Positions 9,561-52,812 of a DNA stretch of 54,258 nucleotides are shown piece by piece. The notes beneath the pieces were generated by a model that saw only the letters and a list, made by a program, of their open reading frames with translations, ran no database searches and was not told the DNA's origin. The stretch spans positions 1-54,258 of the IMG/VR virus record IMGVR_UViG_3300012000_000021; one strand, given 5' to 3'. The position numbers and the translations under genes are program-made. This DNA is from a virus (lineage: Duplodnaviria; Caudoviricetes). Each line of letters starts with the position of its first letter. Within the stretch, counting starts at the first letter, position 1.

Positions 9561-9826
9561 TAAGCGTTTCCTCCATCGAAGGTTGTCTCAAAATCAGTAG
9601 TGCCTGCACTTCCACCATCGAGAGTAGTAGTGTCATAGGATGAACCCACGACTCCACCATCTTCTGTTACTGGTTGAATATTTGGCAAAAATTCTATCCA
9701 ACTAACTCCGTTGTACACGAAGAAACTTTGGCTAAGAGAGTTAAAGTAGACGTCACCATCGTACCGTCCAGCAGGTTCTACTCCGCTGGACAGTACGTTG
9801 ATAGGGACGAGTGCTTTTTTACTCAT
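9560..9826 (-). CDS. small tail-associated protein
   Basis: 88 aa, GDVYFNS...VYNGVSW fibre motif, TAATG coupling. Confidence 0.7.
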   Translation of the reverse strand: MSKKALVPINVLSSGVEPAGRYDGDVYFNSLSQSFFVYNGVSWIEFLPNIQPVTEDGGVVGSSYDTTTLDGGSAGTTDFETTFDGGNA

Positions 9827-9829
9827 GTG

Positions 9830-12694: not shown

Positions 12695-12705
12695 GGTTTA
12701 TCTCC

Positions 12706-13257
12706 TTAAGATAAGTAGGCATTACCTGAGAAAGCGGATTGGAAGGAGACCGTTAGTGAGTTCGAATTAGTGTACGCAATTTCACCTTCAACAATGTTAC
12801 CAGCAGAGTCTATAACTGTAACGTTAGGCTTAAAGCCTAAATTATGAGTAATCGCCCAGGAATTACTGGCCGCTCCTTGCATGTGAGCATATGAGACACG
12901 AGCAACTGTAAAGTACTTATTTGTTGTGCCTTCTGTAAGGTCGTCTGTGTTATCAAGTGCTGCTCCACTAATACCTTGTAGTCCAGCAGTTCCTTGTGTT
13001 CCTTGAGTTCCAGTACCAAGTCGACCTTGTACACCTTGTACACCTTGAAGACCAATGGTTCCCTGTACACCCTGTGTACCTTGGGCGCCTCTGACTCCTT
13101 GAGTACCTTGAGCACCAGTTACCGCTCCACCACCAGAGCAGGCACCGCACCCACAGTTTGATGCGTGGACAGTTCCTTCAGGTGTTGTTATGAGTACGAC
13201 GTTGTTAACTGCAATTGGTACCGTTGCAGACCCTGGACGGGTGTACTGATTCGTCAT
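12706..13257 (-). CDS. short collagen-like structural protein
   Basis: G-X-Q repeats, a TDDLTEGTTNKYF motif and a C-terminal WAITHNLGFKPNVTV domain. Confidence 0.8.
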   Translation of the reverse strand: MTNQYTRPGSATVPIAVNNVVLITTPEGTVHASNCGCGACSGGGAVTGAQGTQGVRGAQGTQGVQGTIGLQGVQGVQGRLGTGTQGTQGTAGLQGISGAALDNTDDLTEGTTNKYFTVARVSYAHMQGAASNSWAITHNLGFKPNVTVIDSAGNIVEGEIAYTNSNSLTVSFQSAFSGNAYLS

Positions 13258-39912: not shown

Positions 39913-40179
39913 GTGAGCCAATTCAATCTCGATGAACTCGGATTACTTCACACAATGGTTGAAGTGTCACTCGACAACGCACTAGAGAATGGCGCACCAC
40001 CACAGATCGTTGCGGTGCTTCAATCTGTACTACCAAAGATTGAATCTCGTATTGAAGAAGAGTGCAACATCTTCAATGAGTTTCAAAAACTAACTACACA
40101 ACTCGATGATCTGCACCTTGCATCACAGATCATTGTGCAGAACCCTGATGCAGTTACAACCGACTACCAAACAAACTAA
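39913..40179 (+). CDS. hypothetical early protein
   Basis: 88 aa, helical. Confidence 0.65.
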   Translation: MSQFNLDELGLLHTMVEVSLDNALENGAPPQIVAVLQSVLPKIESRIEEECNIFNEFQKLTTQLDDLHLASQIIVQNPDAVTTDYQTN

Positions 40180-40203
40180 TCACCTAGAGAAAACGGAAAC
40201 CAA

Positions 40204-41085
40204 ATGACTACAGAAAACAAATCCCTATTCATTCCTACATTGGAAAAGACATCGCACTACATACCACGCACCTTTACTGGTGGCGTTACAGAAGATGCCA
40301 TGTACGACTTCGCACTTGCTCACAACATGAACATCTTGATTGAGGGCGATGCTGGAACTGGTAAAACAACTTCGGCACTTGCTTACGCATCAAAGCGACA
40401 CATGAACTTCTTCGCTGTTCCATGTAACTCAGCGATCGACTTCACTCAGTTAATCGGTGGCTTGTTCCCTGATGCTGACGGCAAACTAAAGTGGGTTGAC
40501 GGCGCGATCACAAAGATCGTTCGTGAGGGTGGCTTGCTACTTATCAACGAACTCAACAACGCACCTAAGAACCTGTCTCAGTACCTCATGTCACTACTCG
40601 ATGATCGCCGTTCAATTACCCTCATGTCACATGACAACGAAGTGATTACGGCTCACCCTGATCTTCTAGTGGTTGCAGATCAGAATCCAAACTATCGTGG
40701 AACTCAATTACTAAATGAGGCGTGGAAAGATCGCTTCGAAATTAAATTGCGCTTCGATTACGACAACACCATTGAGAAGAAGATCATCACATCTTCATCT
40801 CTACTGGAACTCGCAAACGGAATGCGATCAACATCTCGCAGAGACGATCACGCATCAGATCGTGGAACTATCTTCGAGACACCTGTATCACCACGCATTC
40901 TAAAAACATTCGAGAAGTTAGCAAAGGGCTTGTCATTCGATTTCGCTTGCGATGTATTCGTAAACAATTTCACAGATGAAGAGCGACCTGCGGTCAAGAT
41001 GCTTCTAGAAGGTACTTCATACAACATTCGAGAAGAACTCGGACTCGATGTTGATGCGATCACAACTGAACACGATCAGGCTTAA
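40204..41085 (+). CDS. MoxR/CbbQ/CobS-family AAA+ ATPase
   Basis: GDAGTGKTT, WVDG.I, LLINELN (Walker B variant), NPNYRGTQLLNEAWKDRF and SPR sensor II. Confidence 0.9.
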   Translation: MTTENKSLFIPTLEKTSHYIPRTFTGGVTEDAMYDFALAHNMNILIEGDAGTGKTTSALAYASKRHMNFFAVPCNSAIDFTQLIGGLFPDADGKLKWVDGAITKIVREGGLLLINELNNAPKNLSQYLMSLLDDRRSITLMSHDNEVITAHPDLLVVADQNPNYRGTQLLNEAWKDRFEIKLRFDYDNTIEKKIITSSSLLELANGMRSTSRRDDHASDRGTIFETPVSPRILKTFEKLAKGLSFDFACDVFVNNFTDEERPAVKMLLEGTSYNIREELGLDVDAITTEHDQA

Positions 41086-41087
41086 CA

Positions 41088-43088
41088 ATGTGTGCCTGTG
41101 GTAAATGTCCGTCATGCAAACAATGGGGAGTAACAATGAACTATGACGAAGCAATCGAAGAGTGGGAACTCGACATTCTTGGTGAGACTCGTGAGTCACT
41201 ACGATCACAAGCGATCAAGGCAGAAGAGAAGAAACAACGACTAGAGCGATTCACACAATTCTTCGGTCGTGTTAATTCTGCATTCACTTTCCGCAAAGTG
41301 ATTGTGACTGTTGAGAACTCTCCTATGGAAGCACCTGCTTGGTCAGGTGCATCAACTGTCACTTTCAACTCTCGTGTCATTGGTGATCTCAATGATGCTA
41401 AATCAATCGCTGGTATCAAGGGGCTTGATCTTCACGAGATCAGTCACATTCTTTATACATCTCGTGAAGGATCAGAAATCTTTGATTATGTACGAGATAA
41501 CAATTACTTCATGGCATACAACGCACTTGAAGATCAGAGAATCGAAACTCTCTTTACATCAAAGTATCCGTCAACGATCGACTGGTTTACCGCCACGATC
41601 TTGATTCACTTCGTTGATAACAAAGAGGCTTTCACTAACTCTTATCCGCTATTGCGTGGTCGTAGATACCTGCCTGTTGATCTAAGAGCGCAATCTCGTA
41701 ACGCCTATCCTGAACAAGATCAGATCGATGAAATCTGTGCAGTAGTCGATGAGTACCGCACTCTTCTATTCCCTGCTGATACTGAAAAAGGAAAGGAACT
41801 TATTGCGCGATTTAATGAGTTACTTCCAAAAGGTAATGGCAACGGCTCAGGTAATGGCGAAGGTGGGTCTGTGCGACCTGCTGAGGCTGGTGAAGAGGGC
41901 GATGTAGTCATTCGTATCAATGACCCATTCGGTCATGGCAAGCGACCTTCTGAGGGCTTGGAATCGTCTGCTAATTCACGACCTGTTCCACCAAAGAAAC
42001 AAGAGAAAGATCGTGATCGCTCACAACAACTCGACAAAGAAGATGATGCAGAACTGGCTGAGCAACTGAAATCAAAACCTGTTATCGATGTTGACATCAA
42101 CGACATTGATTTTGATTTTGATTTCGATGATGCAGATTCAGATTCAGATCAGGATTCAGATCAAGATTCTGATTCACATCAACCTTCTGATTCTGCTGGT
42201 TCTTCTGCTGGCGAATTAATCGACACATTGATTGGTGATCTATTAGAAAACATTCTTGATTCTAATGAAACCGAAATCAATGACATCTTGCGACAGATTG
42301 GTGGTTTACCTTCTCTTACTACCAACAATTCAAAAGAGCCTGAGTTAGATTCATTTCATGATCTTGCCCCTGATGCAAATACATTTCAAGCATCGTTGTC
42401 ATTCGGTCGTGAGTTAGAGCGATTGAGATCATCGTTCGACCCTGCATGGGATAGATACGAGTCACAAGGTCGCTTGTCTGCACATCGCTACTTGCGTGGT
42501 GATGAACTCGATACTGTATTCGATCAATGGAATGAAGGTCGTGAAGATGCGACTGAGATCGAATGCGTGATCTTGTTAGACAACTCAGGTTCAATGTCAG
42601 GACACAAAGCCTCTAGTGCGTACAAAGCCATGTACGCGATTAAGAAGGCACTTGATCGTGTTAACGCAAATACAACTGTTATCACTTTCAATGATCGTGC
42701 TAACACCCTGTATCGTGCAACTGATCGCGTTGGTAACACAATTCGTGATGCTGGTACTGGTGGTGGAACAAATGCTGACGGCGCAATTAAGTACGCAACT
42801 AAACTGCTTGCCGAAACTGAGAAGCCTGTTCGTATCTTCTTCGCAATTACTGACGGAGAATGGTCGGGCGATCAGAAAGACAATCACGAAACAATCAAGC
42901 GCATGGCTCGTGCTGGTGTGCTTACTGCATTCGCGTACATTCCTGAAAGTACTGAACCTGTAGAACTAAATGCACAGAAGTCTCACTATTGCGAGATCGC
43001 TTCTGTTGTTCGTAATCCATTCGATCTTGTTTACATGGCGAAATCAATCGTGAAGTACGCGATCTCTCGCCGTCTCGTAAGCAACTAA
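41088..43088 (+). CDS. CobT-like partner: HExxH metallopeptidase-like N-domain, acidic linker and VWA domain
   Basis: LHEISH...NALEDQRIE; MIDAS DNSGSM, GGT and ITDG. Alternative start at 41136 after GGGGAG. Confidence 0.88.
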   Translation: MCACGKCPSCKQWGVTMNYDEAIEEWELDILGETRESLRSQAIKAEEKKQRLERFTQFFGRVNSAFTFRKVIVTVENSPMEAPAWSGASTVTFNSRVIGDLNDAKSIAGIKGLDLHEISHILYTSREGSEIFDYVRDNNYFMAYNALEDQRIETLFTSKYPSTIDWFTATILIHFVDNKEAFTNSYPLLRGRRYLPVDLRAQSRNAYPEQDQIDEICAVVDEYRTLLFPADTEKGKELIARFNELLPKGNGNGSGNGEGGSVRPAEAGEEGDVVIRINDPFGHGKRPSEGLESSANSRPVPPKKQEKDRDRSQQLDKEDDAELAEQLKSKPVIDVDINDIDFDFDFDDADSDSDQDSDQDSDSHQPSDSAGSSAGELIDTLIGDLLENILDSNETEINDILRQIGGLPSLTTNNSKEPELDSFHDLAPDANTFQASLSFGRELERLRSSFDPAWDRYESQGRLSAHRYLRGDELDTVFDQWNEGREDATEIECVILLDNSGSMSGHKASSAYKAMYAIKKALDRVNANTTVITFNDRANTLYRATDRVGNTIRDAGTGGGTNADGAIKYATKLLAETEKPVRIFFAITDGEWSGDQKDNHETIKRMARAGVLTAFAYIPESTEPVELNAQKSHYCEIASVVRNPFDLVYMAKSIVKYAISRRLVSN

Positions 43089-43090
43089 CT

Positions 43091-43186
43091 GTCACTCTCT
43101 AGGTGACTACATGAGATGCGCTATTCGTGGAAGGCTGGCGCAGATCATAAGTGAGTGGGGCTTGTTTTTGGCTTGCCCCACTCACT
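43091..43186 (+). other. intergenic triple hairpin
   Basis: GTCAC/GTGAC, TGCGC/GCGCA and a 12-bp AGTGAGTGGGGC/GCCCCACTCACT stem. Confidence 0.55.
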
Positions 43187-43219
43187 ACCCAAACAATTAC
43201 AACTAAGGAGAATAAAGTA

Positions 43220-43837
43220 ATGAAATCAGCAGACCTACAAATCGGTATTAAGTACGGCGTTATTCCTTCATGGGATTACTCATCACAAGATAAGAAAGAC
43301 CCTGCAAAGGTGCAACGCAGAGCCGTTGCTAACGCAGAGTTAGTCTCACTAGAGAAGTACGAATACAAGGTGTATCGATCAGATAATCCTGATGATGCAC
43401 AATTTACTTCTGCACCAAAGGGAAGTAGATCAGTCGGTTACATCGTCAAATCTTCTGACTGGGCTGGTAACACACAGGGTGACATCTACTGGATAGCGAG
43501 AGCGCAGGACATCGTTGCTGAGTATGCAACTCTTGAAACTCGTTGGACTAAAGAAGAAGCCGAAGAGAAGGCTCGTGAGGCTCAATGGAAGGCAGAACGC
43601 GAAGCCAAAGAACAACAAGAGAAGATTGAACAGGCAAACGCTCAACGATCTATTGATGCGGTCAAAGAATCTCTTCGATCAATCATCGGTTCTCGTGCAG
43701 ACAAACTTGATTTCGAGATTCGTAATCGCCGTCAAGAAAACGGAGATTACAAACTAAGCGGTGCTTGCACTATCGATGTACGCACTCTTCAATCACTAAT
43801 CGAGAAGGTTCTCGAAGCAAGAGACATGGTGGCATAA
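43220..43837 (+). CDS. hypothetical early protein
   Basis: Start ATG 43220 (MKSADLQIG) after AAGGAG. Confidence 0.75.
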   Translation: MKSADLQIGIKYGVIPSWDYSSQDKKDPAKVQRRAVANAELVSLEKYEYKVYRSDNPDDAQFTSAPKGSRSVGYIVKSSDWAGNTQGDIYWIARAQDIVAEYATLETRWTKEEAEEKAREAQWKAEREAKEQQEKIEQANAQRSIDAVKESLRSIIGSRADKLDFEIRNRRQENGDYKLSGACTIDVRTLQSLIEKVLEARDMVA

Positions 43838-44542
43838 ATGAGTTACTTCTTAGATCGATTCGTAGCGATTCAAGATAAGTACTACAAGAACTATCAAGGC
43901 AATACGCATCACTCAACATGGTTGCGTAACAAGCGGTTCGATCACATGATTGAACTAAAACAATTACCGAATACCTATCAAGAAATTGAATACAAGGGGC
44001 ATTCAATCATTGTGCAGGGCATTCACTATCAATGGTGCGACATTTTCGATGTAAATGGGAATCACTTCTCTTCTGTACCACGAACATCAGAGATTAAATC
44101 TCGTGGTGATCTGCAATTCAGTACGATCTTTCTTGCATGGGCTTGGCGTATTGACGGACAACACACAGATAAGCCATTGAACTGGAATAGTGAACACGCA
44201 GTTATCTGTGGCAGTCATTCAACAGACAAGATCGAGAAAACGATCAAACTCGCAAAGAAGCGCATCGATCTTGAAGCAAAGATCGTTGCGGTTCAAGATC
44301 AACTGATCGCTATTGCTGGTGAGCGCATGGTGTACTCAACAAACATGAGTGCATACAACCCATACAACGCCGTAATTAACGATCAGGTGTTTATTCAGGG
44401 GTTTGGTCGGTTGCGTAAGGGCATCATCGTTGAGACAACTGGATCACGATTCGTTGTTGCTTATGTAACTCCCTCTAATCATCATGATCTGAAATACAAG
44501 ACACTTCCACTTAGTCGCTTATACATAAAGGAGAATGCGTGA
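43838..44542 (+). CDS. hypothetical early protein
   Basis: 234 aa with an SH3-like C-terminus. Confidence 0.75.
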   Translation: MSYFLDRFVAIQDKYYKNYQGNTHHSTWLRNKRFDHMIELKQLPNTYQEIEYKGHSIIVQGIHYQWCDIFDVNGNHFSSVPRTSEIKSRGDLQFSTIFLAWAWRIDGQHTDKPLNWNSEHAVICGSHSTDKIEKTIKLAKKRIDLEAKIVAVQDQLIAIAGERMVYSTNMSAYNPYNAVINDQVFIQGFGRLRKGIIVETTGSRFVVAYVTPSNHHDLKYKTLPLSRLYIKENA

Positions 44543-45015
44543 CAACTAAAAGCCGAAAGTCTGCTAAAACTATTGAGCGAGAAAACTTTCTTGCTATTGG
44601 TATTAAGGCGTGCAATCGGTGTGACAACCTGTACGAACTAAGTAACTTTCGATCTGCAAAAACTAAATCGGGAGTAGTTTCGTATTGCATTCCTTGTGAA
44701 GATGCGTACAAAGTAGAGTGGCACTTGAAGCGCAGGATTCAGATCAAGGAATGGATTTACAATCACCTAAAATCTAATCCTTGCGTTGATTGTGGCGAGA
44801 AAGATGTACTCGCACTCGACTTCGACCATGTAAGAGGCGCACGAAAGCGTTACAACATCGCTCATGCGTTCATGCTAAGTAACATGACGATCAAGCGATT
44901 ACAAACTGAGATCGCAAAGTGCGATGTCCGTTGCGGTAAGTGCCACAGAATCCGTACACACATGGCTAGTAAGTCATGGAAATACCGAATGGCTATTGAG
45001 AAAGGAGATGCTTAA
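44539..45015 (+). CDS. HNH endonuclease-like protein
   Basis: CVDCGEKD..ALDFDHV.G...EIAKCDVRCGKCHRIRT. Confidence 0.85.
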   Translation: MTTKSRKSAKTIERENFLAIGIKACNRCDNLYELSNFRSAKTKSGVVSYCIPCEDAYKVEWHLKRRIQIKEWIYNHLKSNPCVDCGEKDVLALDFDHVRGARKRYNIAHAFMLSNMTIKRLQTEIAKCDVRCGKCHRIRTHMASKSWKYRMAIEKGDA

Positions 45016-45182
45016 TTGTTAACAGTAAGAGGCTGGATTGTTCTTGTAATTATTCCTGCATTGATCTTGGTATCGCTATTTACTTATGTAACTCGTGATG
45101 TCTGCTATGTGGGCGAAGGCGGTAACTGGTTGGGCTATGGCTCATGCACAAAGATGATCGATGAAGTGACAGGAGAAAACAA

Positions 45183-45380
45183 ATGATTGATTCAGAACTT
45201 GAAACTCTACTTGCTGATGTTGTTCGATCTAAATGGGGCGATAGAGGTATTGAGTATCTTGTTGGTGCGATCTCTAGCATCACAACTGCTGACCAACTAA
45301 CTGCACTAATCAATGCAAATCTTGATTCTCGTGTAGTTAGAACTTCACCTGACGGCTCACTATTCTTGGGAGATAACTAA
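45183..45380 (+). CDS. hypothetical early protein
   Basis: AGGAG RBS, 65 aa. Confidence 0.65.
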   Translation: MIDSELETLLADVVRSKWGDRGIEYLVGAISSITTADQLTALINANLDSRVVRTSPDGSLFLGDN

Positions 45381-45616
45381 TGATCGCAACTGCAAAAGAA
45401 GCAATAGAGATGATCGAGAAAATGTATGCAACAGACATGAGTGAACAACTAGTAATTACTTGGTGGGATTCAACTGATTTCCAAGATCGTGATCTCGATA
45501 AGGCATTCAATGTCTGTGAAGATGCACTTGATGTCTGTATCGGACACATCAGCGACACAATCGCTGACTTCGTTCCTGCTTTAAGTGAAGGAGATTCAGA
45601 TGCCAATAACGCTTAG
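45380..45616 (+). CDS. hypothetical early protein
   Basis: TAATG coupling, 78 aa. Confidence 0.65.
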   Translation: MIATAKEAIEMIEKMYATDMSEQLVITWWDSTDFQDRDLDKAFNVCEDALDVCIGHISDTIADFVPALSEGDSDANNA

Positions 45617-45928
45617 ACAAGCAAAACTGCTAGATCAAAAGTATCGTCACATTCGAGATTGTTTTGAGTGTGGCGATCAACACGATGTCAATGAGATGTA
45701 TCCAAAAGACGGATACTTAATCTGTGAACCTTGTTCGCAGGGAAGATAGGAGATAACCAATGGGATACGCACAGATCGTTCGTAGGGTAGAAGCCCACGA
45801 ACTAACTAATTGTGATGATTGCGGGAATAACGAACTTACTTCATCAGGTAAATACTTCGAAGAACTAGGTAGTCAAAAGATACTGTGGTTCTGCTTTAAC
45901 TGCATTCATAATCCAACACAGTAACTTT

Positions 45929-46186
45929 ATCGAGTAGGGGTCAACGCAGGGTTAAACGACAGGGTTAATTCATTTCCCTATCTCCTTACCTGCTAAGGGC
46001 GATCATGATCGGCTTCTATGATTGCCGTAGTCGTACCTGCCCCTACTCGATTTCACTATTGATAGAGATCGTCAACACCTAGCAGACTACGGCAGACTGA
46101 AAAGGTGTTATGAAAATCTTGCAAGATCGTTGATCGATTTCAGACCAACGCACAACATCGTTCTACTTCTTGACGATCTCTATCAA
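45929..46186 (+). ncRNA. candidate two-domain structured RNA
   Basis: A 12-bp stem (45929-45940/46040-46051) and a 17-bp perfect stem (46059-46075/46170-46186) each enclose a multibranch interior. Confidence 0.6.
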
Positions 46187-46486: not shown

Positions 46487-46828
46487 ATGAGTGAACTATC
46501 ATCACACCAAACTGATCTGATTAAGTCGATCACGATCGCTAACGAGTTTCTAAAGATCGTTCGCGGATTCAAAGTAGATTCTGATCGCAAAGACAGTCTG
46601 CCTCAGGAGATCAAGGAGTACCTAGCCAATGAACACCTGAACTCAATCATGGAAGATCAAGAGATCGAACCTGAGATGTTGATTTGGGGATTCCTGCACA
46701 TGATCGAGATTCTCTTGAAGTATGCAGAGTTAGACCCTGAGGACTTAACGAGTGTCATGGATTCGTTTATGAAGTATGTGATCGAAAACCCTGACCAATA
46801 CAGAGATCGGAGTAACGATGAAGATTGA
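46487..46828 (+). CDS. hypothetical early protein
   Basis: 113 aa, AAGGAG RBS. Confidence 0.7.
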   Translation: MSELSSHQTDLIKSITIANEFLKIVRGFKVDSDRKDSLPQEIKEYLANEHLNSIMEDQEIEPEMLIWGFLHMIEILLKYAELDPEDLTSVMDSFMKYVIENPDQYRDRSNDED

Positions 46829-47093
46829 GATCATCAATGCACCATGTCAGTCAGCAGGTGTTGACCCTGAGTTATTCTTTCCTGACCCGACAGAGTACGA
46901 AAAGATTCAGCGAGCCAAAGCAGTATGCAATCAATGTCCTGAGATCACAAAGAATAAATGTCTCTCATTCGCACTAGACAATGGTGTGCAGTATGGAATC
47001 TTCGGCGGTCTAACAGATCACGACAGAGCCCTACTACGCCGTAGAGAGAATCGAAAATACAAGCAGTATGTATCAGTAGTGGGGGAGTATTAA
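46818..47093 (+). CDS. whiB: WhiB-family transcription factor
   Basis: C...DPELFFP...AKAVCNQCP...CLSFAL...GIFGGLT..R: four Cys plus the G(I/V)(W/F)GG turn. Confidence 0.93.
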   Translation: MKIEIINAPCQSAGVDPELFFPDPTEYEKIQRAKAVCNQCPEITKNKCLSFALDNGVQYGIFGGLTDHDRALLRRRENRKYKQYVSVVGEY

Positions 47094-47218: not shown

Positions 47219-47428
47219 ATGATGAATCCAAATGACATAGTGCTATTTACTCGTGAAGAAGCAAATCAATTAGTGAGGAGAGTGCTTACTGATGATGAAT
47301 GGCTAAAGATCAGAGAGTGGATTACTTCTGACGATAATCTGTGGGAAGTGATCGATGAATGTATTCAGAACACGATTAGTGAGGTGATTATCGATGAAGA
47401 TCAACAAGAAACTGGTGAATCGAATTGA
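47219..47428 (+). CDS. hypothetical early protein
   Basis: 69 aa, GGAG RBS. Confidence 0.65.
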   Translation: MMNPNDIVLFTREEANQLVRRVLTDDEWLKIREWITSDDNLWEVIDECIQNTISEVIIDEDQQETGESN

Positions 47429-47616
47429 AGGATTGGCTCACTACTACCGACATCGCACAACAAACAGGGCTAAAGATCGACACGATCTATACCTATCGAA
47501 AGCGCAACACCCTTCCCGAACCCGATCACATGATCGGCAATCGACCACTATGGAAGCAAGAAACAATCGATAAGTGGAACTCTTATCGAATAACACAAAT
47601 AGAAACGGAGAAATAA
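47425..47616 (+). CDS. AlpA/excisionase-like winged HTH
   Basis: WLTTTDIAQQTGLKIDTIYTYRKRNTLPEPD.MIGNRPLW. Confidence 0.8.
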   Translation: MKDWLTTTDIAQQTGLKIDTIYTYRKRNTLPEPDHMIGNRPLWKQETIDKWNSYRITQIETEK

Positions 47617-47844
47617 ATGGTTGCAAATGTAATCAGTAGTCAAACCTCAGCAACAGATCATGTTATTGAGTTTCCAATGAACGGAAATGTTTACACCGCC
47701 AAAGTATTTATTGGTGAGTGGGGCGTTGATGTTGATTGGTTTATTGGTGAGGACTTTATTGCGATCGATGATCGCTGGAAGGTTCTGCCAACTGATCTCT
47801 ACAATCTCGATGATTTGGATTGGGAAGAGATTCTCTATCCATGA
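47617..47844 (+). CDS. hypothetical early protein
   Basis: 75 aa, GGAG RBS. Confidence 0.65.
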   Translation: MVANVISSQTSATDHVIEFPMNGNVYTAKVFIGEWGVDVDWFIGEDFIAIDDRWKVLPTDLYNLDDLDWEEILYP

Positions 47845-47996
47845 GTACCTACAAAGTAACTTTTGTATGGACACGATCAATCGAAGTCGAATGCGATTCC
47901 GAAGATCAAGCGAATCAACTCGGTGAACTATGGCTATCCGAAGCAGTACCGCAGATCGCTCACGACACCGAATGGGATAGTGAGATCGTCAACTAA
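47841..47996 (+). CDS. small early protein
   Basis: MSTYKVTFVWTRSIEVECDSEDQA...EIVN; ATGA overlap. Confidence 0.65.
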   Translation: MSTYKVTFVWTRSIEVECDSEDQANQLGELWLSEAVPQIAHDTEWDSEIVN

Positions 47997-48072
47997 CTCT
48001 TAGCCCTGATCTGGGGCGATCTGAGAGTTACTTCAAGCGCACATAAGCAGATTCCCTAAGCCCACAGTCACT

Positions 48073-48111
48073 ATTGCCCCTAGCCCCTGATCGGGCTAGG
48101 GGCTATTTTTT
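48073..48111 (+). terminator. intrinsic terminator ending the early operon
   Basis: GCCCCTAGCCC-CTGATC-GGGCTAGGGGC followed by TATTTTTT. Confidence 0.85.
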
Positions 48112-48120
48112 GCATTCGAA

Positions 48121-48151
48121 GTTACTCACCAGTAACATTACTCAGCAGTAA
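48121..48151. promoter_or_regulatory. tandem palindromic operator-like sites upstream of the integrase
   Basis: GTTACT-CACC-AGTAAC immediately followed by ATTACT-CAGC-AGTAAC. Confidence 0.55.
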
Positions 48152-48168
48152 CATGAAGGGGGAAGATC

Positions 48169-49431
48169 ATGGCTTATGTCGTAAAGCGTGGGGATAGGTT
48201 TACAGGCTATTACCGAAAGGGCGGTAAACGCCTCTCAGCAGGTACATGGGGCTCGACTATCGATGCCATGTACCACGCCTCAAAAGCAGAGGCATCGGGT
48301 GGCAGCGAGCCTTCTAGGGCTGTATTTACCCTATCGACCTACATCGATTCATGGCTTCCCACCGCCGATCTCATGCCGATCACTCGCAAGGGCTATCGAT
48401 CAGTCATTGACCGCTATGTGATTCCAACTCTTGGAGATCGCAAAGTAACTTCGATCGATACCCGTACCATTCAAAAGTTACTTCAAGCCCTGAGATCAGA
48501 AGGAGTCGGTTCAGCCACCCTCAATCAGATCAAGGCATCACTAGGGTCTGCCTTCTCCCAGTTAGTCGATACAGGAGAATTAACTCAGAACCCTACTCAT
48601 GGGATTCGTATTAAGGCGAAGTATTCGGACATCTCAAATGTTGTAGAACCCGAAGAGTTTAAAGCGATTATTCAGCATCTACCGACCGAAGGGGCGCAGT
48701 TATTCGCCCGATTCTTAGTCGCATCAGGTTGCCGATTCGGGGAAGCAACCGAGATCAGGGTCAAGGACATCAACCTGAGGACAGGGGAAGTCTATGTCCA
48801 AAGGCGAGTCAGCGATCTAGGGTCAAGCCATACCAGCAGGTTTCTAGTCGTAGAAGCCACAAAGTCGGGTCATAAGCGAAGCCTTATGTTAAGCAAAGCC
48901 CTACTACAAGAGATTCAGGGTTATGTCATAGCAAAAGCCCTATCAAAAGATGACCTGTTGTTTCCAAGAACGATCATCTTAACAACAGGTAAACTAGAGG
49001 CTTCTCGTGGAGAAATGTCTAAGCGACCATTCGCCAAAGACGGAAAACTGTTCCAGCATGGAACTCTGTACGCCTATACACATGGGCGTTGCCGATGCGA
49101 GGCTTGTAGAGAGTCGGTGCGAAAGCACAGGCAAAAGACAAAGCCATACCAAAAGCAACAGAGGTTCATCGACCATACGAGTCACCTACCACGAGATGTA
49201 TGGAGAACTACATGGAACAAGGCAATAGCCAAGTCAGGCATCGGTTGGAGTCCTAGAACCCATGATCTAAGGCACGCTAACGCTACTCAACTTCTAAAAA
49301 GCGGAGTAGATGTGCATGAGGTCAAGGAACGCTTAGGGCATCAGTCGATAAAGACGACAGAGCGATACCTACATCGCCTTCGTCACAACCAGTCAAAGGC
49401 ATCAGAAAGTGTCAATGACTTTTTGGAGTGA
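48169..49431 (+). CDS. int: tyrosine recombinase/integrase with an internal zinc-binding insert
   Basis: SGCRFGE (R), TKSG (K), HDLRH, LGHQS and ERY; insert HGTLYAYTHGRCRCEAC. Confidence 0.92.
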   Translation: MAYVVKRGDRFTGYYRKGGKRLSAGTWGSTIDAMYHASKAEASGGSEPSRAVFTLSTYIDSWLPTADLMPITRKGYRSVIDRYVIPTLGDRKVTSIDTRTIQKLLQALRSEGVGSATLNQIKASLGSAFSQLVDTGELTQNPTHGIRIKAKYSDISNVVEPEEFKAIIQHLPTEGAQLFARFLVASGCRFGEATEIRVKDINLRTGEVYVQRRVSDLGSSHTSRFLVVEATKSGHKRSLMLSKALLQEIQGYVIAKALSKDDLLFPRTIILTTGKLEASRGEMSKRPFAKDGKLFQHGTLYAYTHGRCRCEACRESVRKHRQKTKPYQKQQRFIDHTSHLPRDVWRTTWNKAIAKSGIGWSPRTHDLRHANATQLLKSGVDVHEVKERLGHQSIKTTERYLHRLRHNQSKASESVNDFLE

Positions 49432-50012
49432 TGATGAATCTAACAAGAAGAGGCAAGATCGTATTCGGATCGCTATTTACGGCGATGTTCGTTGGTAGTG
49501 GGCTAGTGGTATTGCCACCAGCCTTTAGCCCTACGCAAGCCGAAGCACAGATCATGCAGAAGCAATACCAAGAGCGAGCCCTAGCCAAGTACGAGAATGC
49601 AGACAAACTAACTCAGACACAGTTAGTCGATCTGCTTAGCGCAGTTGGCTTCAAAGGACAAGCCTTACGCTATGCGTGGGCAATCGCTATGAAAGAGTCA
49701 CATGGAAACCCTCTCTCCCACAACGGCAATCGCAAGACAGGGGATAACTCATTCGGGTTGTTCCAAGTCAACATGGTTGACTCATTGGGACAAGATCGCA
49801 GGGAAAAGTTCAATTTAGAGTACAACGCTCAACTGTTGAATCCTGTGGTGAACGCCAAGATCGCTTACTTCATGAGCGCAAAAGGCAAAGACTGGAGATC
49901 ATGGAAAGGTGTCCACAATCCTGTAGTAAAAAAGTGGTTAGCACAGTTCCCTGAAGCACATGCAAAAGCCCTAGCAAAAGCGAAAGCGAAAGCACTAGGA
50001 ATAACAGAGTAA
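49428..50012 (+). CDS. membrane-anchored lytic transglycosylase (SLT/lysozyme-like)
   Basis: N-terminal TM/signal segment; AIAMKESHG (catalytic Glu), SFGLFQVN, LLNPVVNAKIA and W.SW. Confidence 0.85.
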   Translation: MMMNLTRRGKIVFGSLFTAMFVGSGLVVLPPAFSPTQAEAQIMQKQYQERALAKYENADKLTQTQLVDLLSAVGFKGQALRYAWAIAMKESHGNPLSHNGNRKTGDNSFGLFQVNMVDSLGQDRREKFNLEYNAQLLNPVVNAKIAYFMSAKGKDWRSWKGVHNPVVKKWLAQFPEAHAKALAKAKAKALGITE

Positions 50013-50022
50013 GCAATAGGAG

Positions 50023-50048
50023 AAGCCCCGTCAGAAATGGCGGGGCTA
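50023..50048 (+). terminator. hairpin terminator
   Basis: AGCCCCGTCA-GAAA-TGGCGGGGCT with a GNRA loop and a weak U tail. Confidence 0.65.
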
Positions 50049-50102
50049 TCTTCGAAGTAACTCTACCTGGCAGCCAGGTGAGTTAGTTAGTTAGGGGAGC
50101 AC

Positions 50103-50615
50103 ATGGCAAGTGGCGGTATGCAGGACTGGCAGTCAATAAGTCATAGCAAAGCAAAGCCATACCAGAAGCCATACCAGAAGCAAGAGCAATTCCCAAAGCA
50201 ACACCAGAAGGACGAGTGGACTCAACCCGAACTGCCATTTACTGATAAGCCGTGGCGTTCTGATAAGTATCTTACTGATACTGAAATAGAAGAACTCTTT
50301 TGGCGCAAATTAGTGCAGTTGGGTTGGAGATGGCAGACATACGGCGAGAACTTAAAGAGCAAGAACATTGTGTTGCCTTGCCCTTACTGCAATTTACTAA
50401 TGGATAGCCACACCATCATCACAGAAACAAACTCTAAAAGAATGCAAGACAAATATTATTGCGAACAAGTTTTAAAGAGGCACAAGGGTCTTGAATGCAA
50501 AGCCATACTAGAAGACGAAGCAATACCAGAAGCCATATCAGAAGCCATACCAGAAGCATGTTACAAGTGCCATGGTGAAGGCATCTTGCAATCAGGAGAA
50601 GAGTGCGACTGCTAA
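50103..50615 (+). CDS. hypothetical zinc-binding protein carrying the 12-bp repeats
   Basis: CPYC and CYKC...CDC; KPYQKPYQ and EAIPEAISEAIP segments. Confidence 0.6.
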   Translation: MASGGMQDWQSISHSKAKPYQKPYQKQEQFPKQHQKDEWTQPELPFTDKPWRSDKYLTDTEIEELFWRKLVQLGWRWQTYGENLKSKNIVLPCPYCNLLMDSHTIITETNSKRMQDKYYCEQVLKRHKGLECKAILEDEAIPEAISEAIPEACYKCHGEGILQSGEECDC

Positions 50616-50616
50616 A

Positions 50617-52641
50617 TTACTTAGGTTGGTTGTCAGTAATCAGTTTGACTTCGCAAGCATCAGTTGTGCAGTAAGCCTCACCAATAGCATCAGCAGCCAT
50701 TCCTGCATAGACACCAGAGAAGTCAATAGGGAAGAGTTGCATTACGCCTTGCTCTTCGTATTCCTTCTCAGTGATCTGTGTGTAAGGCATTTGAGGATAT
50801 ACATGGTTACCACTAGGCAAGAATGAGACAGTCTTTAGTTGACCATCGTACATATGCAAAGCCGTACCAATAGCCGAGGCTTCCTTTTCTGGATCAAATG
50901 AGATTGTTACAGAGACAGAGTTGTCTGACCAGTAGCGTTGAGCAGTGGCAGCAAGTGCCATCTTCTCGTAAATACTTACATCCTTCTCACTTCGCTTAGC
51001 CTCTGACTTGATAGGGAAGAAGACAACCGAAGTCGTATCAGGAGACTCACTTGCTGGCTCTACTCTGTAGTTAGCAAGTTTGAACAGTGGAAGCATTGGG
51101 TCGTTGTTTGAGAAGCGGATAGCACGATTGAAGTACTGACCACCTACAGTCCAGTGAACTCCTGGAGATTCTCCAGCCAAGATACTTACTGTTCCTGATG
51201 GCTTGACTGTTGTCATCTTGATTGACTCACGGATACCAAGCCACTCTGAGTAGTTGGTGTCATATGACTTGATGACCTTGTAGCCTTCATCCATCCACTG
51301 ACGCAGGACTGGGAGTCCCTTAGTGTCTGCAAAGTTTGCAACACCTGAGACTGATGTACCGATACGGCGATTGCGCTGCATGATCGCATTGGTTTCTTCC
51401 CAGTGAGTTGGAAGCAATGTCACAGTCTTTGCATAGAGGTAAGCGAACTTCAATGTGCGCTTGAAATCTTCAAGATCTGTGTGGCGATTCAAGTAAGTCT
51501 CTACCAATGTGCAGCACTCGTATGACTCTAGTGACTGCTCAGCACATGGGTTGTACCCTGCAATACGCCAGTCCTTGTTGTTGATTGGATCTGCAAGGCG
51601 ACCGTATTGCTTGGAGATGTCCATCCAAATAACTCCTGGCTCTCCGTTGCGAGCAATACCTTCGATGATTCCATCGAGGTTATCTCCTACATTGACAGCC
51701 ACAGAGTTGTTCGACATCCAGCCATGCGTCATACGCTCTGGATACTTCTCGTAGTTCTTTAGGTTTAGAAACTCTTCATCTTCAATGCGACCAATAAGTA
51801 GTTCTGCAGAGCGACGGACGTTGCCAGAGACTACGCACACACCAATCATGTTTCCAATGTCTGCGATGTCACGACGAGTTAACTTCTGACCAGCACGACC
51901 CTTGAATAGTTCACAGATGTACTGGTGCAGTTTGATTAGAGGATCTGCTCCTGCTGCGGTTCCACCGAAGGTGCGGATTGGTTCACCCGCTGGACGGATC
52001 GCTTCGTAATTAAATGTTGGAGCCTTTGTATCTGGCTTGAGGTAGGCATTGATGAGGGCGGCTGTTGCTTCGACCCAACCCTCTCGTGTGTCTGGGATGT
52101 CATAGGTGTAATCTCCTTGTGGTGCATAGATGTTGAACTCCTTATCTGCTCCCTTATCATCAAAACCAACGCCCACTCCGAGCATTGATGCCTCCATAAG
52201 AAATGCAAATGGTTTTGCTGGATCTGTCTTTATCATCGATCCAGTTGAAACGAAGGCGCAATTCTGTAGTGCTGCTGAGTTGCGTTGCTCATTGACGATT
52301 GGAGTTCCCATAACCCATAGACCTCTTCCAGGCGGTGTCCACTTCAAGTTCCATAAGCGATCGAATGCCTCTTTGGCTGAGGCTGCTGGCTTTTCATCTG
52401 ACCATGGCAAGCGGGTCGGCTTTGCGTGAGCCTTCTGCAATGAGTACATGCCGTTAATCACACGTTCACATACATCGACCCACGTCTCTTTCGTACCATC
52501 TGCCTTGAGGCGAGAATAGGTACGTAAAAAAGTTATCTCTCCAACCGAGTTACCTGCTGCATCTTGATAACCAAACGGCGCCTTCTTTGGGCGATAAGGT
52601 CCGATGAAGTCCTCAGTCAGTTTGAAAGATAATGTTGTCAT
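50617..52641 (-). CDS. nrdJ: class II (adenosylcobalamin-dependent) ribonucleoside-triphosphate reductase
   Basis: PPGRGLW, LQNCAF, GNVRRSAE, NPCAEQ (thiyl Cys), TVKPSGTVS and C-terminal CTTDAC. Probable start 52641. Confidence 0.95.
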   Translation of the reverse strand: MTTLSFKLTEDFIGPYRPKKAPFGYQDAAGNSVGEITFLRTYSRLKADGTKETWVDVCERVINGMYSLQKAHAKPTRLPWSDEKPAASAKEAFDRLWNLKWTPPGRGLWVMGTPIVNEQRNSAALQNCAFVSTGSMIKTDPAKPFAFLMEASMLGVGVGFDDKGADKEFNIYAPQGDYTYDIPDTREGWVEATAALINAYLKPDTKAPTFNYEAIRPAGEPIRTFGGTAAGADPLIKLHQYICELFKGRAGQKLTRRDIADIGNMIGVCVVSGNVRRSAELLIGRIEDEEFLNLKNYEKYPERMTHGWMSNNSVAVNVGDNLDGIIEGIARNGEPGVIWMDISKQYGRLADPINNKDWRIAGYNPCAEQSLESYECCTLVETYLNRHTDLEDFKRTLKFAYLYAKTVTLLPTHWEETNAIMQRNRRIGTSVSGVANFADTKGLPVLRQWMDEGYKVIKSYDTNYSEWLGIRESIKMTTVKPSGTVSILAGESPGVHWTVGGQYFNRAIRFSNNDPMLPLFKLANYRVEPASESPDTTSVVFFPIKSEAKRSEKDVSIYEKMALAATAQRYWSDNSVSVTISFDPEKEASAIGTALHMYDGQLKTVSFLPSGNHVYPQMPYTQITEKEYEEQGVMQLFPIDFSGVYAGMAADAIGEAYCTTDACEVKLITDNQPK

Positions 52642-52812
52642 AACCCCTACCATTTCTATAAATGTCTAAATACCCCTCTGTGGGTTGCTTAGTATTGCGC
52701 TTGGAAACCTATCATGCATCTGTTAACTTTGCGAAGTACTCTCGCCAAAAGAAAATGGTCAACTACGGGTGAGATATGTTTTACACCCTGTTAACTGCTG
52801 TTATCAGATAAG

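Follow-up and report, generated by a model that had tools for sequence, protein, structure and literature searches.

Short repeated words serve as binding sites or exchange signals in several well-described systems. Arm-type sites of phage attP regions include P1, P2 and P'1-P'3 of lambda and P1-P7 of mycobacteriophage L5. At the RNA level, multi-site arrays include the TRAP-binding (G/U)AG repeats of the trp leader and the CsrA-binding GGA repeats of CsrB, where a single protein reads many sites along the same RNA. Some centromere and roadblock systems use tandem direct repeats of 12 bp, and the Neisseria DUS, the Haemophilus USS and the Rickettsia palindromic elements are maintained by a DNA-level process and not by the protein. 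Here we describe a 12-nucleotide word, repeated through an integrase operon of a phage lineage from lakes and freshwater, that has likenesses to and differences from most of these systems. Our best guess, which we hold tentatively, is that it is an array read on the sense-strand transcript.

The repeat word and its operon

The window, meaning the whole stretch of DNA that was analysed, is 54,258 nt of a phage fragment that is 54% complete. The features that bear on the repeat field are the following.

47425-47616: gene for an Xis-like HTH_17 protein, upstream of int
48110-48152, + strand: promoter-like site of the int operon (TTGCAT-17 nt-TAACAT), start of the repeat-carrying transcription unit
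48169-49431, + strand: tyrosine integrase (int), 420 aa, Pfam Phage_integrase, E=7.4e-25
48825-48836, + strand: repeat copy in int, exact AAGCCATACCAG, frame +2 (S-H-T-S), in a variable loop
49141-49155, + strand: repeat copy in int, AAGCCATACCAAAAG, frame 0 (K-P-Y-Q-K)
49428-50012, + strand: gene for a secreted lysozyme-like protein (SLT), Pfam SLT_3, E=1.3e-17
49560, + strand: weak repeat copy in the SLT_3 gene, K-Q-Y-Q, 2 mismatches
49966-50022, + strand: array A, degenerate 12-nt units AAGCCCTAGCAA, AAGCGAAAGCGA, AAGCACTAGGAA, ..., AAGCAATAGGAG
50020-50052, + strand: hairpin 1, directly 3' of array A, conserved RNA-type stem
50055-50092, + strand: hairpin 2 or palindrome, AAGTAACTCTACCTGGCAGCCAGGTGAGTTAGTTAGTT, before the ORF170 ribosome-binding site
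50103-50615, + strand: ORF170, with CxxC motifs, its N- and C-termini encoded by arrays B and C
50138-50210, + strand: array B, AAGTCATAGCAA, an exact tandem pair at 50154 and 50166, AAGCAAGAGCAA and AAGCAACACCAG; frame 0 reads KPYQKPYQKQEQFPKQHQK
50500-50556, + strand: array C, copies at 50500, 50518, 50530 and 50542, frame +1 (AILE..AIPEAISEAIPEA)
50617-52653, - strand: class II ribonucleotide reductase (RNR), convergent with ORF170, right-hand limit of the repeat field

The repeat has the 12-base core AAGCCATACCAG and the full unit AAGC[C/A]ATA[C/G]CA[G/A]AAG; its copies are arranged as direct repeats and have no dyad symmetry. On the + strand of the window, the core is present in 4 exact copies, starting at 48825, 50154, 50166 and 50542, and in 9 copies at one mismatch or fewer, eight of them within 48825-50553 (with one mismatch at 49141, 50500, 50518 and 50530) and the ninth at 2033; the - strand of the whole window holds 0 copies at the same threshold. 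Two-mismatch copies start at 49560 and 50196, and further degenerate units at 50011 and 50138. When both strands are counted at up to two mismatches, the window has 17 matches, where 100 shuffles averaged 4.06 +/- 2.01 and 0/100 reached that number, and a tandem-repeat search (TRF) reports period 12 at 50154-50181 and 50517-50557.

These counts bear out, and strengthen, the clustering of like-oriented copies between 48825 and 50553 that a preliminary description of the window had reported. Most of the positions it listed stand (48825, 49141, 49560, 50154, 50166, 50196, 50500, 50518, 50530 and 50542), but 48935 and 49966 are three-mismatch variants, and 50184 is not the start of a unit, the unit there beginning at 50178 with 4 mismatches. 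The convergence of two transcription units at the array, also part of that description, is confirmed: the + unit ends at 50615 with ORF170 and the - strand RNR ends at 50617, leaving a gap of 1 nt.

The promoter-like site of the operon is overlapped by two 16-bp palindromic operators, GTTACTCACCAGTAAC and ATTACTCAGCAGTAAC, and has a strong terminator just upstream, at 48076-48103; the promoter/operator layout, with 2-4 operators, recurs in relatives down to 61% Int identity. The integrase has a Cys-rich insertion and a predicted lambda-type N-terminal arm-binding fold. ORF170 matches no Pfam or PHROG family, and its Atlas scores, at most 0.80, are none of them informative; it is hypervariable, with 42-96% identity among phages whose Int is ~95% identical, and its homologues all have K/Q/Y/H-rich N-termini. 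A Tgt/DpdA-like protein is also among the neighbours of the repeat field. WhiB suggests an actinobacterial host for these phages, and they appear in lake and freshwater metagenomes from several separate studies. In the INPHARED phage collection, a DNA search with 48100-50700 gave no match and an Int protein search gave only integrases below 60% identity, mostly of actinobacterial phages, the best 15 listed being 23-25% identical to Int. An Rfam scan of 47500-51000 returned two sub-threshold matches only, NsiR1 (E=0.86) and P26 (E=6.4).

Contigs from the RNA libraries X15-X18 cover int, SLT and RNR; one of 2,017 nt spans 48198-50188, and the contig of one relative skips ORF170. As neither strand nor transcript ends can be read from contigs, and they do not prove transcription, we draw no conclusion from them.

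Copies, strands and reading frames among relatives

In the genomes compared, the word is almost restricted to this locus. A relaxed 15-mer scan of the window and three fuller relatives (G001, G003 and G005, genomes of 81-95 kb, G005 being complete at 95.5 kb) placed 7/7 matches in G005, 10/11 in G003, 9/13 in G001 and 10/11 in the window on the int-sense strand of the int-to-RNR stretch, so that equal frequency elsewhere, which the preliminary description had named as the finding that would speak against it, is not seen in any of the four genomes. Among 58 non-redundant relatives, read on the int-sense strand only, all 191 copies fall between int position ~650 and the end of the + unit. A two-strand scan of all 91 loci found six with one - strand copy at one mismatch or fewer. 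We regard as coincidental a copy in antisense orientation that lies 77 nt within the 3' end of RNR; it stems from the codons for A-G-M-A and varies synonymously. Wherever a relative holds both int and RNR, one contig carries the two in unchanged order and orientation, and in L047 and L007, which have extra genes before RNR on the - strand, these genes are repeat-free and the repeats stop at the last + gene.

The copies are not tied to coding sequence. Array A extends past the end of SLT (stop codon at 50010-50012) into non-coding RNA, array C in relatives is partly or wholly 3' of the stop codon, and the L071 clade has repeats without ORF170; in ORF170-less relatives, the 12-nt-phased array continues in non-coding DNA up to a bidirectional terminator. 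Exact units persist in non-coding DNA, in ORF170 alleles that are 30-45% identical and across clades down to 61% Int identity. The variants are lineage specific: AAGTCATACCAA occurs in the L071 clade at three scattered places, including a new position in int, the L055 clade has ..ATAGCAG units, and isolated single copies of 12-15 nt, ~0.9 kb apart, carry common variants of their lineage. Judged from these alignments, the repeats evolve in concert, with lineage variants changing together across dispersed sites. The sister clades L065, L066 and L083 have 0 repeats yet retain the operon and the hairpin, from which we conclude that the repeat element is dispensable, and a search of the repeat-less clades found no substitute repeat family. 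Identity breakpoints among close relatives show no sharp coincidence with the arrays, and the idea that these are boundaries of module exchange is unsupported for that reason.

Reading frames were the basis on which the preliminary description placed the constraint on DNA and not on protein, and both the readings and the conclusion hold. The word encodes S-H-T at 48825 (frame +2), K-P-Y-Q at 49141 (frame 0), K-Q-Y-Q in SLT, and K-P-Y-Q together with A-I-P-E within 50103-50615, and the 191 copies divide into 82 in frame 0, 41 in frame 1, 30 in frame 2 and 38 non-coding or other. Unit positions 1-3, 8 and 11 are nearly invariant and positions 5, 9 and 12 variable, alike in frame 0, frame 1 and non-coding copies, and the frame 2 class (19 contexts) varies only at positions 1, 8, 9 and 12. 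Variation at the third-codon positions of frame 0 copies is 0.01 (position 3), 0.07 (position 6) and 0.06 (position 9), and at the degenerate third-codon positions of frame 1 copies (8 and 11) it is 0.00. Occurrence in three frames and in non-coding DNA, with a positional profile independent of frame, argues for constraint on nucleic acid, and on this comparative evidence the word is set at that level and not at the level of protein.

Synonymous conservation at the int copies, likewise anticipated, proves raised across the relatives compared but not exceptional. At 49141, where copy number varies among relatives and indels are present, the major codons account for GCA 41/41, AAG 50/51, CCA 35/37, TAC 44/48 and AAG 55/55, and the site ranks 19th of 180 five-codon windows of int in synonymous conservation (18 representatives); at 48825, the 12-nt window ranks 292/1249.

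Candidate explanations

Our tentatively preferred explanation is a sense-strand, transcript-level binding array that controls the 3' end of the operon at a convergent junction lacking a terminator. A putative factor with sequence specificity would recognise the copies in the RNA itself, or in the non-template strand as the operon is transcribed. The tandem arrays, placed at the 3' ends of genes beside a + strand RNA hairpin and a terminator-less junction, would form a multi-site platform controlling 3'-end formation, read-through or decay of int-operon mRNA, and control of this 3' end may in turn limit antisense transcription into RNR. A more specific version is doubtful. It would have the arrays provide sequence-specific, factor-dependent 3'-end control or collision avoidance, replacing an intrinsic terminator at the head-on junction, with the recognition word laid over coding loops and termini in all three frames of the int operon across a widespread uncultured lineage of lake actinophages.

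Several observations point to a transcript-level array. The copies are confined to the sense strand and their extent ends where the + unit meets the convergent RNR, the variants shared within the L071 and L055 clades suggest a common reader or template, array A adjoins the + strand hairpin, and a terminator scan of the ORF170/RNR junction found no terminator-like site. Hairpin 1, folded as the consensus of 15 sequences, has one pair of which both partners change in 3 sequences, and G.U or U.G at several others; pair 29-38 is U.G in 11 sequences and U-A in 4, and the G.U variants pair on the + strand only. No T-run follows it. In hairpin 2, the outer stem pairs are conserved and the centre is variable among relatives. 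In predicted + strand RNA, all 10 copies at two mismatches or fewer are more accessible than the median 12-mer (73rd-99th percentile), and in predicted - strand RNA, they are not; such accessibility is what the A/C-rich composition alone would give. As for Rho utilisation, the copies are predicted to be unpaired and the arrays are partly untranslated in relatives, with a C/G ratio of 1.06-1.64 that is unremarkable (57th-93rd percentile of the + block).

Against a transcript-level array, no RNA-binding or termination factor was identified, the sister clades L065, L066 and L083 do without repeats, and local duplication inside coding DNA also predicts restriction to the sense strand. Literature listings offer no precedent: among the matches listed in a full-text search for the 12-mer word, there were only apparently unrelated primer uses, and the listings for freshwater actinophages held nothing on such repeats. 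A different RNA-level idea, antisense pairing with the int start, came from the first 7 nt of the unit being the reverse complement of ATGGCTT. Complementarity of at least 7 nt is kept in 17/32 distinct int start regions (one with 12) and lost through synonymous Ala codons in 15/32, and we rejected it as chance.

The main rival to a transcript-level array is a functionless, self-propagating minisatellite, possible although somewhat unlikely. Linker coding rich in K/A/Q/P/E, with a hexamer period AAGCNN, would have seeded a 12-nt unit with no stop in any of the six frames, slippage would make tandem copies, and short-patch recombination between arrays would homogenise them in permissive loops, termini and UTRs; 12-15-nt tracts are, however, short for gene conversion. 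Tandem units whose copy number varies among close relatives are indeed what is found: every site differs among relatives in copy number and indels, with 1-3 copies at int-973 and variation in arrays B and C at ~95% Int identity, and the unit spacings of 12 (47 cases), 30 (23), 18 (9) and 42 (6) are as slippage in coding DNA would give. The repeat sites are variable loops or termini, whole sister clades lack repeats, the synonymous conservation in int is not extreme, and the same 24-mer, encoding EAIPEAIPE, arose independently in the unrelated metagenome contigs L132, L134 and L135. A coding minisatellite constrained only through its peptide is nonetheless at odds with the three frames, the non-coding copies and the frame-independent profile. 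The mismatches are strongly non-uniform along the unit, with the same pattern in non-coding DNA and all coding frames; exact units are kept in non-coding DNA, in divergent ORF170 alleles and over large Int distances; single copies far apart share lineage variants; and K/A-rich coding elsewhere in the 81-95-kb genomes generates no such repeat family.

Arm-type recombinase sites, proposed in the preliminary description, are in our estimate unlikely. The repeats would be sites of a double-stranded recombination module, arm-type for the Int N-domain and/or tandem sites for the Xis-like HTH_17 protein, and attP would have its centre in the hairpin region that separates array A from array B. The protein side of that proposal gains from the predicted structure, in which Int has a separate N-terminal arm-binding domain modelled as strands 3-7, 10-17 and 20-27 plus helix 30-43 (pLDDT ~80); the best PDB match of Int is full-length lambda Int (1z1b, E=1.2e-8), and a Pfam scan of residues 1-60 gave no match. 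The HTH_17 gene upstream, the non-palindromic direct repeats in 12-bp phase flanking a conserved 70-bp region within ~250 bp, the absence of repeats elsewhere in the 95.5-kb genome and the co-variation of variants across sites all favour it. The repeats do not follow the N-domain, however: L065, with 25/27 beta-sheet residues identical, and the L083 and L066 clades, with 22/27 N-domain residues identical (0.81), have 0 copies, whereas L037, with 19/27, has 6. Nor does the HTH_17 recognition region separate repeat-bearing from repeat-less groups. Arrays A and B flank the hairpin region, but other copies are 0.9-1.2 kb away in int and at 50500-50556, making a field of 1.7 kb with copies inside int; in addition, the repeat-less clades have no substitute family, and in the ORF170-less clade only one side carries an array. 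A prophage search of 185,579 species-representative genomes, one per species, found no integrated relative with the Int protein as query and, with an Int alignment, one weak partial match in an Oscillospiraceae MAG, and neither a tRNA gene nor a T-arm-like core was found. The sister clades with the same N-domain and no repeats, together with the lack of a prophage or attB, weaken the case for arm-type sites. An integron-like cassette array with attC sites was also considered and rejected, since the direct repeats have no dyad and the Int is lambda-like, with an N-domain, and co-directional with the genes.

Other double-stranded arrays, also raised in the preliminary description as polar block sites, are quite unlikely. 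These would be polar roadblocks to RNA polymerase or the replication fork at the convergent junction, or silencing or partition-type nucleoprotein arrays to which a protein of phage or host would bind. A single orientation throughout, with the strongest arrays at a head-on junction without a terminator, fits a roadblock, but this leaves unexplained the copies in int, which lie 0.9-1.8 kb upstream of it, and sister clades with the same junction have no repeats. No candidate binding protein or partition ATPase is among the 12 annotated proteins of the + block.

The remaining suggestion of the preliminary description, origin iterons that lie within coding sequence as they do in gene O of lambda, is very improbable: the repeats are direct, tandem, in one orientation and partly within a gene, but they adjoin neither an AT-rich unwinding region or skew turn (GC is 0.46-0.48 at 48-51 kb, and the window minimum of 0.41 and the cumulative GC-skew minimum are at 38-42 kb, at a divergent strand switch) nor a cognate initiator gene (none of the seven genes from 46487 to RNR matches an initiator, helicase-loader or Rep family), the 12-15-bp unit is scattered over 1.7 kb, and ORF170 is small, hypervariable and absent in the repeat-keeping L071 clade. 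Hardly to be credited either is selection for a short linear motif K-P-Y-Q in three proteins, which the presence of K-[PQ]-Y-Q in Int, SLT and ORF170 and the K/Q/Y/H-rich N-termini of the ORF170 homologues would fit, but which, as sole cause of the repeats, is contradicted in the alignments by 71/191 copies in other frames, 38/191 non-coding or other copies, fixed synonymous third positions and a variable second-codon position.

Significance and comparison with described systems

Should a factor read these repeats, a regulatory or recombination signal would have been layered over three proteins in three frames and kept for long, which would point to an undescribed binding protein in lake and freshwater phages. 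Although these phages encode an integrase, the species-representative genomes searched yielded no prophage. Should the repeats be functionless, they would be a clean natural case of a 12-nt unit evolving in concert across coding frames, and a caution for motif-based annotation of origins and att sites.

With attP arm-type sites, the locus shares direct repeats that are short and non-palindromic, some of them in tandem with a period of about one helical turn, and an adjoining heterobivalent tyrosine integrase, its N-domain fold being predicted here. It differs in that the repeats extend over 1.7 kb, include copies inside int, are all on the sense strand and do not track the N-domain, and in that no core, attB or prophage was found. 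The lambda origin in gene O likewise has direct repeats in an open reading frame, tolerated by the protein, but the present locus, whose unit measures 12-15 bp, lacks an AT-rich stretch, a turn in skew and an initiator gene, and the gene that hosts the repeats is dispensable.

The TRAP and CsrA arrays are similar in their many short sense-strand repeats at regular spacing, predicted here to be single-stranded and set beside a conserved hairpin. They are found in leaders or non-coding RNAs, whereas the repeats of this operon have a longer unit and are mostly coding, in three frames, or at 3' ends. Rut sites offer the parallel of a G-poor, unstructured, C-containing tract, phased here at ~12 nt, ahead of a pause hairpin and at a junction that has no intrinsic terminator. 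Unlike the repeat unit, which has near-invariant positions, a C/G ratio of ~1.1-1.6 and mostly translated copies, rut sites are not sequence specific. Finally, the Neisseria DUS, Haemophilus USS and Rickettsia palindromic elements are also short words that occur in coding sequence, in all frames, and are enriched at 3' ends. Those elements are genome-wide, whereas the repeats described here are gathered in ~1.7 kb of a 95-kb genome, on one strand.

Repeats and their locus

The window is an entire IMG/VR virus record, linear and with a CheckV completeness of 54%, in which the repeats occupy the end of a plus-strand gene block:

46818-47093, plus strand, WhiB
47425-47616, plus strand, Xis-like HTH_17 protein
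48076-48103, strong terminator between the HTH_17 and integrase genes
48169-49431, plus strand, tyrosine integrase (Int)
49428-50012, plus strand, secreted SLT_3 lysozyme-like protein (SLT)
50103-50615, plus strand, ORF170 (170 aa), adjoining the convergent RNR gene
50617-52653, minus strand, class II ribonucleotide reductase (RNR), convergent with ORF170
52813-54258, minus strand, Tgt/DpdA-like gene (481 aa) following RNR, matching PHROG 887 queuine tRNA-ribosyltransferase (E = 5.5e-56)

The PHROG match hints that the phage modifies its DNA with 7-deazaguanine.

The 12-mer AAGCCATACCAG is exact at 48825, 50154, 50166, and 50542, has one mismatch at 49141, 50500, 50518, and 50530, and has two at 49560 and 50196, always on the plus strand. 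Seventeen matches at up to two mismatches compare with 4.06 ± 2.01 in shuffles, and none of 100 shuffles reached 17. Scanning the window placed 8 of 9 plus-strand copies at up to one mismatch within 1.7 kb and found none on the minus strand at that threshold. The preliminary description was right about the main copies and their reading frames; its positions 48935 and 49966 carry three mismatches, and no unit begins at 50184. The sole out-of-cluster one-mismatch copy, at 2033, is overlapped by the last of five exact plus-strand copies of GTTCCTGAGTTAG, which recur at 150- to 309-nt intervals (1258-2035) within a minus-strand ORF (1251-2804). Several large minus-strand ORFs at 8190-13257, probably tail fibers, have collagen-like G-X-Y tracts from very long 9/18/54-nt tandem repeats. 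Six-base palindromes are scarce at 40001-46000 and 48001-52000 (observed/expected, 0.16-0.38 versus 0.31-0.97 elsewhere in the window), a matter of context with no bearing on repeat function.

Searches with ORF170 and Int gave 91 related IMG/VR loci (61-96% Int identity), with the common gene order WhiB, HTH, Int, SLT, usually ORF170, and then convergent RNR. Their repeats lie on the int-sense strand near int nucleotides 651-657 and 967-991, at the SLT 3' end, and at both the 5' and 3' ends of ORF170. Among fuller relative genomes, copies with at most one mismatch fall within the int-to-RNR stretch in 8/8 (G003), 5/8 (G001), 5/7 (G002), 6/8 (G004), and 3/4 cases (G005, a complete genome of 95.5 kb); with a relaxed 15-mer, the shares are 7/7 in G005, 10/11 in G003, 9/13 in G001, and 10/11 in the window. 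Against the rest of the genome, the clustering is locus-specific in these fuller genomes. The tandem 24-mer was located in 15 IMG/VR contigs, every one of them from the phage family of the window, and in 11 metagenome contigs, 7 of them with that family's genes. Another of the metagenome contigs, L136, comes from a relative in which a different small Cys-rich ORF ends in EAIPEAIPED. The remaining three, L132, L134, and L135, use the identical 24-mer to specify EAIPEAIPE within P/A-rich linkers, but the proteins are unrelated, and we take these cases to be chance tandem duplications; two of the three contigs have cyanobacterial-type GCGATCGC words, and one is high in GC. A full-text literature search for the 12-mer found, among the papers listed, no description of the word in phages.

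Constraint and concerted change

In a logo based on 256 distinct contexts, the unit lengthens to AAGC[C/A]ATA[C/G]CA[G/A]AAG, and neighboring copies are spaced by 12 (47 cases), 30 (23), 18 (9), or 42 nt (6). A frame census covered 191 copies at up to one mismatch from 58 nonredundant regions: int contributed 40 read as K-P-Y-Q-K, 30 as x-S-H-T-S, and 3 in frame 1; SLT, 6 in frame 1; ORF170, 42 in frame 0 and 32 in frame 1 (A-I-P-E type); and noncoding or other sequence, 38. The mismatch profile along the unit is much alike in frame 0, frame 1, and noncoding copies, with positions 1 to 3, 8, and 11 almost fixed and 5, 9, and 12 variable; frame 2 copies, from only 19 contexts, vary at 1, 8, 9, and 12. 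At degenerate third-codon positions the base is fixed, yet one second-codon position varies. No other finding argues as strongly that the word, rather than the peptide, is what is kept, and together with the fixed third-codon positions this profile sustains the earlier claim that the constraint is not on protein, placing it on nucleic acid; selection for a peptide motif is scarcely credible.

Within int, word-level constraint appears weaker in its support than in the whole copy set. Synonymous conservation there is mixed: major-codon fractions at codons 324-329 are raised (0.75-1.00 versus a gene mean of 0.67), but the conservation ranks of that codon stretch (19/180 among 18 clade representatives) and of the int-657 site (292/1249) are unexceptional. 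The int-973 site is a loop rich in indels, with one to three copies among relatives.

Dispersed sites also hold lineage-specific variants in common. AAGTCATACCAA is found in the L071 clade at int-812, where the window has no copy, at int-988, and in the array at the 3' end of SLT; several sites carry ..ATAGCAG units in the L055 clade; and in L039 the three-mismatch site int-767 has become a near-canonical copy. Such sharing requires a common reader coevolving with the sites or for templated homogenization. The repeats are a conserved, locus-restricted, sense-strand, nucleic-acid-specified family changing in concert.

Arrays at gene ends and their possible function

Tandem arrays are located at gene ends:

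49966-50022, plus strand, array across the SLT stop codon and into a conserved hairpin (50020-50052)
50138-50210, plus strand, array encoding the ORF170 N terminus
50500-50556, plus strand, array encoding the ORF170 C terminus, in many relatives running on past the stop codon to the RNR stop

The clade lacking ORF170 (L071-L079 and L088) has a single array whose 12-nt phase is kept through noncoding DNA to a bidirectional terminator, and in L047 and L007, with extra minus-strand genes before RNR, the repeats end at the last plus-strand gene. Three of 15 hairpin sequences have one pair altered at both of its bases, and there are several G·U variants, which pair only in plus-strand RNA. Hairpins with AACTCT.../...AGAGTT arms recur at 47993-48033 and 50055-50092, each with GTTAGTTAGG between it and the gene that comes next; the hairpins have the hexamer GTTACT/AGTAAC in common with the int operators. 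The RNR C-terminal A-G-M-A codons (50693-50704), 77 nt inside the gene, are an antisense near-copy of the 12-mer, exact in 11 of the 54 distinct RNR 3' ends listed and with three mismatches in the window.

The best fit, held tentatively, is a transcript-level array, in which the repeats would be bound on the plus-strand transcript of the int operon. Their strict limit to one transcription unit and one strand, their clustering at the 3' ends of genes next to a plus-strand RNA hairpin, and the convergent junction without a terminator all point this way. The copies are predicted to be accessible in plus-strand RNA, although A/C composition alone would give the same; the C/G ratio of the arrays is ordinary. 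Nearly as likely, and still doubtful, is a functionless, self-propagating minisatellite, consistent with the flux in copy number and with whole clades devoid of repeats, but at odds with constraint that is position-specific and frame-independent and with exact units persisting in noncoding DNA across deep clades.

Sites of a recombination module are rather unlikely. The arm-type sites proposed initially would suit the lambda-like N-domain predicted in the integrase, but the repeats do not track that domain: L065 has 25/27 identical residues and no copies, the L066 and L083 clades also lack copies, and a repeat search found no substitute family in these three clades. Nor does the Xis-like protein separate repeat-bearing from repeat-less groups, and no integrated relative turned up in species-representative genomes, nor did scans detect a tRNA or a tRNA-like core. 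A double-stranded DNA array of some other kind, or a roadblock, is less probable again. Replication-origin iterons, also suggested earlier, we regard as most improbable, as the AT-rich stretch and skew turn lie at 38-42 kb rather than at the repeats, no initiator gene was found in the region, and ORF170 is dispensable, the clade without it keeping its array.

The integrase and its promoter

The integrase catalytic domain has an insertion at about residues 288-343 (49030-49200), with an invariant H-G-T..Y..G-C-R-C..C followed by a variable-length K/A/Q-rich linker and no match to a Pfam family. ORF170 homologues among the 91 loci are hypervariable (42-96% amino acid identity) where Int and RNR are 91-97% identical; a C-terminal CxxCxGxG extension is optional, and one entire clade lacks the gene. 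Upstream of int, a conserved noncoding block (48040-48112; ..CATAAGCAGATTCCCTAAGCC..AGTCACTAT..) closes with a strong intrinsic terminator, just ahead of the int promoter. The block may represent a small RNA or, alternatively, the early operon's 3' UTR, and its Rfam match to NsiR1 is weak and subthreshold (E = 0.86).

The universal feature near int is a promoter with palindromic operators. The consensus-like promoter, TTGCAT-17 nt-TAACAT (48110-48152), is overlapped by two to four operators in tandem, each a 16-bp palindrome, TTACTnnnnAGTAA, whose central bases are free; this layout is kept in clades down to 61% Int identity (61 distinct int-upstream regions listed), L065 having one partial copy. 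From this conservation, int seems to be under tight repression by some dimeric regulator, and the operators look like repressor sites rather than arm sites. Arm sites would be expected somewhere, since the integrase model has a three-strand-plus-helix N-domain and finds its best structural match in lambda Int.
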